Source: Escherichia coli (lineage in GTDB: Bacteria; Pseudomonadota; Gammaproteobacteria; Enterobacterales; Enterobacteriaceae). Taken from it: 1,160 nt of DNA. How positions within the stretch are numbered: the first letter of the stretch is position 1; each line of letters starts with the position of its first letter. The stretch lies in the NCBI RefSeq assembly GCF_003334335.1, contig NZ_QOWQ01000119.1, one strand, 5' to 3'. The notes under the pieces were generated by a model. The model had not been told where the DNA came from and searched no databases. It worked only from the letters and a program-made list of their open reading frames with translations. Made by a program: the position numbers and the translations under genes. Of the stretch, positions 1 through 1,160 are shown one piece after another.

Positions 1-201
1 CCATCAGAGCAGGCGTATCGCGTATGGCGTAAGACACCGGAGAAGGCTGCTGACCCGACACTGATTCGAAAGTTACCTGACGGAGAAATACGTCGTTACA
101 ACAGACGGCAGAACATAATTTGTCGTGAGAGCAGGAGGAGCGAAGTTATGCAGCGTGTGCTGGCGTTCTATCGGGGAAACTTTCAGGAGGTGATGGAGTG
201 A
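1..201 (+). CDS. 3' end of an upstream gene (C-terminal 66 codons in window, ...SEVMQRVLAFYRGNFQEVME*); product not recognised, presumed phage early protein
   Basis: Frame 1 is open from position 1 to a TGA stop at 199..201, while the other two + frames hit stops at 30..32 and 62..64. The stop overlaps the GTG start of the next gene (GTGA at 198..201). It is absent from the ORF track only because its start lies outside the window. I do not recognise the protein family. Confidence 0.55.
   Translation, partial: PSEQAYRVWRKTPEKAADPTLIRKLPDGEIRRYNRRQNIICRESRRSEVMQRVLAFYRGNFQEVME
185..190 (+). promoter_or_regulatory. Shine-Dalgarno (AGGAGG) for the DUF4406-like gene, embedded in the 3' end of the upstream gene
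   Basis: AGGAGG at 185..190 lies 7 nt upstream of the GTG at 198, which is near-optimal spacing. Confidence 0.7.
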
Positions 202-500
202 GGGTGAGAGTCTATATCGCCGGTCCAATGACCGGGTATAAAAATTTCAACCGTGAGGCGTTTCACAATGCGGAAGAGGTACTGAAACGGGAAGGGCATA
301 CCGTTTTAAACCCGGCAGTACTTCCGGACGGGCTGACTCAACCACACTACATGGATATTTGCATGGCAATGCTCCGTTGCGTGGATGCGGTTTACATGCT
401 GAAAGGCTGGCAGCAGTCGGCAGGTGCAAGGGCTGAGCTGGCACTGGCGGAGAAACTGGGCCATGCGGTGATTTTTCAGGAGGTGGGCAGTGAATATTGA
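198..500 (+). CDS. DUF4406 family protein (nucleoside 2-deoxyribosyltransferase-like fold), 100 aa, GTG start
   Basis: The N-terminus MRVRVYIAGPMTG...NFNREAF...GHTVLNP matches the signature I associate with DUF4406 / NDT-like small phage proteins (beta-strand, then a glycine-rich AGPMTG loop, then an aromatic FN..AF motif). The ORF is complete with a strong SD upstream, and the family normally begins right at the YIAGPMTG motif, which supports GTG 198 over the internal ATG at 228. Confidence 0.85.
   Translation: MRVRVYIAGPMTGYKNFNREAFHNAEEVLKREGHTVLNPAVLPDGLTQPHYMDICMAMLRCVDAVYMLKGWQQSAGARAELALAEKLGHAVIFQEVGSEY
478..483 (+). promoter_or_regulatory. Shine-Dalgarno (AGGAGG) for the small membrane-protein gene, embedded in the 3' end of the DUF4406-like gene
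   Basis: AGGAGG at 478..483 lies 6 nt upstream of the GTG at 490. Confidence 0.6.
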
Positions 501-729
501 CCCGGCGATAACGATTGATATGGCCCTGAACACCGGCCTGGCACTTCTTGGTTATTTCTACATCATGTTCTGCAGCGGACGATGGCTGTCACTGTTGTTC
601 ATGAAAAAATGGAATAAACGCCGTAAGCAGGAGCAACGCCAGAAGGCAATGGATGCATTTTCGAAGCCTTCGGAATTGACGGCATGGAACCAGGGGATCC
701 AGCTCGCGCAATCAGCAGAGGGGGTGTAG
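490..729 (+). CDS. Small predicted membrane protein, 79 aa: one hydrophobic helix followed by a polybasic segment; function unknown
   Basis: The ORF starts at GTG 490 with AGGAGG 6 nt upstream and overlaps the previous gene by 11 nt (previous stop 498..500); an in-frame ATG at 520 is an alternative start. Residues ~12-37 (ALNTGLALLGYFYIMFCSGRWLSLLF) are hydrophobic, immediately followed by KKWNKRRKQEQRQK, consistent with an N-out/C-in single-pass topology by the positive-inside rule. It ends in a tandem stop, TAG 727..729 then TAA 730..732. No family recognised. Confidence 0.6.
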   Translation: MNIDPAITIDMALNTGLALLGYFYIMFCSGRWLSLLFMKKWNKRRKQEQRQKAMDAFSKPSELTAWNQGIQLAQSAEGV

Positions 730-759: not shown

Positions 760-1074
760 ATGACGATCACAAAACAACGAGTAGAAAAAATCATATATCG
801 CCATGAAATGGGACTGAACAGCGATGTCACTGCCGAAGAGGTTTATGACCTGGCTGTACTGGCGCTGAATTTATCAAATATCGCAAACCTGAAGCGATAC
901 GAGCTTGATATGGATGGTTGCGACTCGTGCGGTCAGGATTGTGGCGCAGATATGACTGAAGATCCTGATGGTGATTATGTCCTGTTTGATGACGTGGTTA
1001 AGTTGTTTGAATTTGATACAACCACTCAAAAGTTAGAAATCCCGGCAAAGGAGGCAGCCAGTGAGCAAGATTGA
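760..1074 (+). CDS. Hypothetical small acidic protein, 104 aa, with a C-x2-C-x3-C cluster; function unknown
   Basis: ATG at 760 is preceded by a purine-rich stretch (GGAG 745..748, GAAGAG 750..755), and the ORF runs to TGA 1072..1074. By hand count it has about 24 Asp/Glu against 9 Lys/Arg. Cysteines sit at residues 54, 57 and 61 (nt 919..942). The track's TTG 736 start has no SD and is less likely. Confidence 0.7.
   Translation: MTITKQRVEKIIYRHEMGLNSDVTAEEVYDLAVLALNLSNIANLKRYELDMDGCDSCGQDCGADMTEDPDGDYVLFDDVVKLFEFDTTTQKLEIPAKEAASEQD
1046..1052 (+). promoter_or_regulatory. Shine-Dalgarno (AAGGAGG) for the downstream partial gene, embedded in the 3' end of the acidic-protein gene
   Basis: AAGGAGG at 1046..1052 lies 8 nt upstream of the GTG at 1061. 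Confidence 0.7.
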
Positions 1075-1160
1075 CTATCAGGCACTGCGTGAAAAGGCAG
1101 AGAAAGCAACTAAAGGAAGCTACATCGTAGGGCATACATCTGTTAACCAGCACGGCAATT
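1061..1160 (+). CDS. 5' end of a gene, likely ead/Ea22-like family prophage protein (N-terminal 33 codons in window, VSKIDYQALREKAEKATKGSYIVGHTSVNQHGN...)
   Basis: GTG 1061 has a strong SD 8 nt upstream, and the frame stays open to the window end. It overlaps the previous gene by 14 nt in a different frame. The N-terminal pattern (short leader, then QALRE-AEKAT) resembles what I recall of ead/Ea22-like proteins in E. coli prophages; this is from memory and not verified. Confidence 0.55.
   Translation, partial: MSKIDYQALREKAEKATKGSYIVGHTSVNQHGN

Follow-up and report, generated by a model that had tools for sequence, protein, structure and literature searches.

The window (the whole stretch of 1,160 nucleotides of Escherichia coli DNA that was analysed) is matched at 100% by E. 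coli NCTC9112 (NZ_LR134079.1, 3371777-3372936, minus strand). It lies in the rightward operon of a lambdoid/Rac-like prophage, directly downstream of the replication genes, where the local gene order is DUF1376, P, DUF1627, DUF977, DUF4406, DUF4752, a hypothetical gene, an ead/Ea22-like gene, DUF551 and further genes. The window itself carries the following genes:

1 to 201, plus strand: 3' part of DUF977 (Ren-like, HTH), its last 66 codons, ending ...AFYRGNFQEVME*, the reading frame entering from beyond the left end of the window (translation, PHROG 142, PF06163, PGAP)
198 to 500, plus strand: DUF4406 (nucleoside 2-deoxyribosyltransferase-like), 100 codons, GTG start (ORF, PHROG 355, Pfam PF14359, PGAP)
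490 to 729, plus strand: DUF4752, GTG start, truncated here by a frameshift (ORF, PHROG search, PGAP, comparison with intact homologs)
760 to 1074, plus strand: hypothetical gene (PHROG 3126), ATG 760, ending ...PAKEAASEQD*, its 3' end holding the Shine-Dalgarno (SD) sequence of the next gene (ORF, PHROG, PGAP)
1061 to 1160, plus strand: 5' part of an ead/Ea22-like gene (VSKIDYQALREK...), GTG start (PHROG search, PGAP)

The Pfam domain PF06163 (DUF977) reaches from residue 1 to residue 126 of the 130 encoded by the full gene and so includes F125-Q126, and PF14359 (DUF4406) spans residues 4-93, with the end of the model falling exactly at Phe93. The frameshift in DUF4752 lies in a run of T at 658-661 (four T, against five in the intact homologs at loci L002 and L009) and leads to a premature stop at 727-729; PGAP likewise marks a frameshifted pseudogene. 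An intact DUF4752 would reach approximately position 806, overlapping the next gene (ATG 760) by 47 nt. Several further pseudogenes occur downstream in the host prophage, including DUF551 and a hypothetical gene, and these pseudogenised genes suggest that the prophage is decaying. Close to its immunity and replication region it also encodes the toxin-antitoxin pair RelE/RelB, together with dicB and hokD (L001, 1787-2266 and 9506-9661).

The junctions between DUF977 and DUF4406 (junction A), between DUF4406 and DUF4752 (junction B), and between the hypothetical gene and the ead/Ea22-like gene (junction D) carry these elements:

181 to 192, plus strand: first copy of a 12-mer, forming the F-Q-E-V codons of DUF977 and containing the putative SD for DUF4406 (sequence; TTTCAGGAGG kept at the DUF977 3' end)
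185 to 194, plus strand: putative SD of junction A, AGGAGGTGAT, 10 nt, ending 3 nt before GTG 198 (sequence)
474 to 485, plus strand: second copy of the 12-mer, forming F93 of DUF4406 and a Q-E-V tail and containing the putative SD for DUF4752 (sequence; allelic series)
478 to 485, plus strand: putative SD of junction B, AGGAGGTG, 8 nt, ending 4 nt before GTG 490 (sequence)
1049 to 1065, plus strand: junction D, AGGAGGCAGCCAGTGAG (putative SD, spacer of about 5-6 nt, GTG 1061 of the ead/Ea22-like gene; sequence, locus comparison)

Exact copies of the 12-mer TTTCAGGAGGTG stand at 181-192 and 474-485 of the plus strand, and no third copy is present in the window, even allowing one mismatch. A preliminary description of this DNA had reported that the repeat encodes Phe-Gln-Glu-Val at both positions, and this is exact and in frame. 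Copy 1 is read TTT CAG GAG GTG ATG GAG TGA (...NFQEVME*), and copy 2, in the ORF at 198-500, gives ...VIFQEVGSEY*. The TTT of copy 2 encodes Phe93, the last residue of the DUF4406 Pfam domain; since the model ends exactly there, QEVGSEY is a tail outside the domain. The GTG starts lie 4-5 nt past the copies, each overlapping the upstream gene: GTG 198 shares GTGA (198-201) with the DUF977 stop at 199-201, and GTG 490 of DUF4752 precedes the DUF4406 stop at 498-500, so that the two genes overlap by 11 nt and the stop falls 8 nt beyond the start. PGAP picks GTG 198 in the source genome and, in intact relatives, the GTG equivalent to 490. No extended homology was found between the copies, the upstream flanks (GGGGAAAC versus GGTGATT) being unrelated; downstream, only the start context G-AGTGA recurs, offset by 1 nt.

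The octamer AGGAGGTG is the full complement of the 3' end of 16S rRNA (anti-SD). At junction A, AGGAGGTGAT extends this complementarity to 10 contiguous bases, which is unusually long. The core AGGAGG stands at 185-190, 7 nt before GTG 198, at junction A, at 478-483, 6 nt before GTG 490, at junction B, and at 1050-1055, 5 nt before GTG 1061, at junction D, where the upstream stop (1072-1074) lies 11 nt past that start. At all three junctions the upstream ORF thus contains an SD that is functionally spaced from a start in agreement with PGAP, and the upstream stop overlaps the downstream start or lies a few nucleotides from it; all three coupled starts are GTG. From this anatomy and the PGAP annotation we infer that translation initiates at GTG 198 and GTG 490 and that these SDs are used in coupled translation, in line with the dual coding and initiation role proposed in the preliminary description. 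RNA folding at the junctions was no better than in shuffled sequences (z = +1.05 at A, +0.65 at B and +0.86 at D), and the positive scores are consistent with accessible SDs. Moreover, dozens of non-identical loci, with alleles that vary at other positions, retain CAGGAGG at junctions A and B, always 6-8 nt from the annotated start (7-8 nt at junction A).

Translational coupling with the downstream SD in the upstream coding region is known from trpE-trpD, trpB-trpA and galT-galK of E. coli and from the nin region of lambda. As in those systems, the final codons of each upstream gene contain the SD, at 6-8 nt from the next start; the stop overlaps that start at junction A and follows it by 8-11 nt at junctions B and D, and the genes are densely packed on one strand. 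There is no essential difference, although the SDs are unusually long here (8-10 nt of complementarity) and the starts are GTG. On this model, a near-maximal SD (AGGAGGTG) in the last codons would allow ribosomes to initiate the following gene at a weak GTG that overlaps the upstream stop.

We then compared each copy with its equivalents at related loci. For copy 2, 85 DUF4406-carrying loci yielded 40 non-identical DNA sequences. The Phe codon is TTC in 24 of these, TTT in 14 and TAT in two, and the nine bases that follow it are CAGGAGGCA (23), CAGGAGGTG (10), CAGGAGACA (3), CAGGAGGAG (2) or CAGGAGGAT (2). The resulting allelic series is TT[TC]/TAT CAG GAG G[TG/CA] and others, with GTG alternating with GCA, ACA, GAG and GAT. 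What is conserved at copy 2 is therefore the protein (F/Y-Q-E) and the SD core, and not the 12-mer. DUF4406 homologs of 60-70% identity from other Enterobacterales likewise have F (55) or Y (31) at the aligned position, followed by Q and then by E, S, D or G.

Copy 1 was surveyed in 125 loci with a DUF977 3' end. Here TTTCAGGAGG is almost invariant and stands before at least five different downstream genes, which include DUF4406, DUF4752 (L091), an Ea22-like gene (L007) and others (L160, L167, L006). The SD is broken in a single DUF977 allele (TTTCAGAAGG, AGAAGG; L005 and L171), in which the next annotated gene is 105 nt away; this one allele, seen at two loci, is suggestive of SD loss where no gene closely follows DUF977. 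Copy 1 accordingly tracks DUF977 regardless of the next gene, and copy 2 tracks DUF4406. Where DUF4406 stands behind a different upstream gene (O157 type), the junction is TTTCGACAGGAGGGTTCAGGAGTGA, with the SD read AGG-AGG, and that alternative upstream gene uses GACAGGAGGGTT instead of the 12-mer. This alternative neighbour (hypothetical/DNA-binding) also has a T-rich tract just 5' of the SD, TTTATTTCGACAGGAGG/TTTATTTCGACAGGAGGG (L002:1475-1507, L003:1475-1507), and the junctions may share a weak preference for U-rich sequence at that place.

Of the 40 non-identical loci, a single one (the haplotype of the window) has the exact 12-mer at both junctions; 22 have it at A alone, seven at B alone and 10 at neither. 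The identity of the copies is therefore haplotype-specific, and the two assort independently. The preliminary description had taken a lack of conservation at equivalent junctions as a sign of coincidence, and at these 40 loci the 12-mer is indeed not conserved; the reused junction module that it had proposed is likewise not supported, each copy belonging to its own upstream gene. Gene conversion from copy 1 to copy 2 was considered as well and rejected: O157-type prophages without copy 1 commonly carry the copy-2 allele, which can therefore be explained without any exchange between the copies.

The 12-mer is also found far from these genes. Followed by N4-8 and GTGA, it occurs in at least 120 IMG/VR contigs. 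Among the matches listed, 59 of 121 lie outside DUF977/DUF4406 contexts and represent, by our own grouping, roughly 25 or more mutually unrelated flank contexts; many of the contigs listed are clearly non-enterobacterial. Because unrelated viral contexts share it, the 12-mer appears to be a generic strong ribosome-binding sequence that arises repeatedly.

How surprising, then, is the repeat? When the window was put through 5000 dinucleotide shuffles, 227 of them (4.5%) contained some exact 12-nt direct repeat, so before any biology is considered a 12-nt repeat is modestly unusual. Eight of the 12 bases (AGGAGGTG) are an SD at two sites that both need one, which leaves only about four bases to explain. 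By a rough estimate, the residual coincidence (the Phe codon, C and TG) amounts to 1-2% for this pair and is not trivially likely. The repeat is thus out of the ordinary, as the preliminary description had it, although less so than was claimed there.

The amino acids encoded by the repeat can be approached in the same way. In a survey of the coupled junctions at all fetched loci, an SD in the upstream ORF is mostly read xAG-GAG-G. At least five unrelated upstream genes read it as CAG-GAG (Q-E), namely DUF977, DUF4406, the DUF4752 gene of L091 (...FRQEKTK*), a gene of L080 (...KQEATSEQD*) and a Stx1 phage gene (...PPQEVN*), the last of which has the full CAGGAGGTG. The PHROG 3126 gene (...PAKEAASEQD*) reads K-E, and one further gene reads E-E. 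The first codon of the xAG reading cannot be TAG, and AGG-AGG is a pair of rare Arg codons. An in-frame AGGAGG would thus best be read xAG-GAG-Gxx, avoiding the rare Arg pair, which would yield Gln-Glu and, where the SD is extended by TG, Val. The TTT before the SD would encode a Phe that the DUF977 and DUF4406 families each conserve for their own reasons. Past the SD, the upstream ORF would continue through the spacer and the first codons of the next gene until the first stop. The DUF4406 tails indeed vary with the downstream gene (ANSE*, ATSEQH*, ATSERN*, VGSEY*, VAQ*, EVQ* and others), because the upstream ORF runs on after Q-E into whichever gene follows.

The preliminary description had further suggested that the 12-mer may mark recombination breakpoints. 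We compared the window with 98 distinct related segments and obtained 142 true HSP edges; 102 of these lie in four zones around the junctions, which together account for 12.6% of the window. Right edges gather at 483 (26), 486 (17), 482 (5), 190 (5) and 202 (2), and left edges at 195 (16), 198 (4) and 1045-1074 (15); searches of phage and of E. coli genomes show the same homology edges. This clustering at junctions, well known from mosaic joints at the coupled gene boundaries of lambdoid phages, places the cassette joints just 3' of the SDs. Breakpoints at the copies are therefore real, whereas the 12-mer is not singled out as the crossover site. The spacers after AGGAGG follow the DUF977 allele, one allele having TGATG before two downstream genes and others CGGCGCA/CAGCGCA before two others, and since the spacers segregate with the upstream allele, the joints are placed at the GTGA start and not inside the 12-mer. 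The operon genes would then act as cassettes in which the upstream gene carries the SD and joints fall in the SD-to-start interval.

A further recurrent mosaic edge lies within DUF977, at 72-75 of the window (15 distinct left edges, with many genome matches starting at 72-73), so that the last approximately 43 codons of DUF977 assort apart from the N-terminal HTH part. Stx phages have cassettes related to those of DUF4752 and the Ea22-like gene beside the attachment site and an AntB-like gene (L008 = AP005153.1, Stx1 phage, 1386-2235), annotated there as repeat 'arrangements c/f/e, region II'; the same cassettes are thus found in another part of the phage genome.

For joints of this kind in lambdoid phages, PMC3233612 contrasts two models: crossover within short boundary sequences that are conserved (Susskind & Botstein 1978; Clark et al. 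2001, HK620), and illegitimate recombination after which intact genes are selected (Juhala et al. 2000; Hendrix). The debate between the two models is also found in PMC2327257 and PMC3945230. The present locus resembles lambdoid mosaic boundaries in that homology between related prophages stops within a few bases of gene junctions and in that cassettes reassort in many combinations. In contrast to a conserved boundary sequence, the 12-mer is not conserved, and only the SD core AGGAGG and the GTGA start are common to the junctions.

A different picture is offered by junction D. Among the sampled loci, a 17-nt core, AGGAGGCA[AG][AC]CAGTGAG, comprising SD, spacer and GTG start, is found between six upstream and five downstream flank classes (also at L009:2042, L038:1781, L072:2164, L080:2744 and L092:1433), and its spacer is conserved without obvious functional constraint. 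Much of this sharing arises because the Ea22-like gene brings its own SD and spacer; the core also precedes non-Ea22 genes behind DUF4406. A recombination linker would be the same short sequence whichever modules flank it. This holds for the 17-nt core and not for the 12-mer, exact at both junctions in just one of 40 haplotypes, and by its sequence the core at 1049-1065 fits a boundary sequence better than the 12-mer does, while still being a known kind of thing.

Taking these results together, the two copies are most probably the 3' ends of two unrelated genes, each with an embedded SD, their identity reflecting SD convergence and a coincidence of about four nucleotides. An alternative is that the 12-mer, or the SD-to-start junction as a whole, is a recombination linker, with copies identical by descent between which cassettes such as DUF4406 are gained and lost. 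The clustering of breakpoints right on the 3' side of the copies (190-202 and 482-486) would be expected under this alternative, as would the sharing of a related 17-nt core by so many flank classes at junction D, and the boundary-sequence model is treated as an accepted possibility in PMC3233612 and PMC3945230. A natural DUF977>DUF4752 joint that lacks DUF4406 even exists, in L091 (TTTCAGGAGGcagcgcaGTGAATATCGA), with TTTCAGGAGG at the joint, although we rejected L091 as a recent recombinant of the window's copies, its allele being diverged (83% identity). When an artificial DUF977-12mer-DUF4752 joint, as a 12-mer-mediated deletion would leave it, was searched against 5,426 E. coli genomes, no exact recombinant was found; full coverage was reached solely by the source genome, in which the match is split in two. 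Furthermore, the exact 12-mer is allele-specific and its two copies assort independently, neither flank of one copy is related to that of the other, an arrangement that could not come from one crossover, and the spacers travel with the DUF977 allele, putting the joints at the GTGA start. Random joining followed by selection for intact genes would give an equal clustering of breakpoints, and sequence by itself would not separate targeted crossover from selection. Overall, we regard descent of the copies from a common linker as improbable. We hold just as doubtful the broader proposal that SD-to-start junctions (Y-CAG-GAG-G, N5-7, (C)A-GTGA) serve as universal adaptors for crossover by a phage single-strand-annealing recombinase, a grammar that would be clearest in the 17-nt core. 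If true, any cassette could be placed behind any other with translational coupling kept, and the accessory-gene region of lambdoid prophages would provide direct evidence for the Susskind-Botstein linker model.

It is very unlikely that the repeat is pure chance, with AGGAGG motifs that are not used as ribosome-binding sites. The frequency of 12-nt repeats in shuffled windows does leave room for chance, and this repeat was picked after the fact out of a genome scan; CAGGAGG is nevertheless kept at both positions, at its constant distance from an annotated start, and the sole DUF977 allele without a closely following annotated gene is the one that has lost it. Still less credible is another kind of cis element, be it a frameshift stimulator with a prfB/dnaX-like internal SD, a structured RNA, a protein operator or an integron-like cassette site. 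Internal SD-like sequences near stop codons do resemble frameshift stimulators, and the 12-mer does sit at cassette borders. A programmed frameshift stimulator was, however, rejected on anatomy: the 3' contexts GTGATGGAGTGA and GTGGGCAGTGAATATTGA contain neither an X XXY YYZ slippery heptamer nor a shifty stop of the CUU UGA type beside either copy. A structured RNA is at odds with the folding scores, and Rfam families gave no match at E <= 1. Promoter and terminator searches at the junctions returned nothing above shuffle expectation. Integron attC sites are imperfect palindromes of 57-141 bp recombined by an integrase. The 12-mer resembles them as a short repeated element bordering a single-gene cassette, but it has 12 nt, no palindrome or structure and no attC-type flanking inverted repeat at either copy, and no integron integrase is present in the surrounding 13 kb; an attC-like site was rejected on these grounds.

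The preferred reading, SD convergence at the ends of two unrelated genes, makes the whole an ordinary and already known arrangement, embedded-SD translational coupling at lambdoid mosaic gene boundaries, with little significance beyond that of a clean textbook example. Repeat scans should give no weight to short exact repeats at gene junctions if these contain AGGAGGTG, and for annotation, C-terminal tails such as QEVGSEY are to be taken as junction by-products and not as a protein domain. The case shows how the upstream protein comes to have a Gln-Glu-(Val/Ala) tail, imposed by a maximal SD in its coding frame, and how junction sequences become almost identical by convergence between unrelated phage genes, with cassette joints in the SD-to-start interval.
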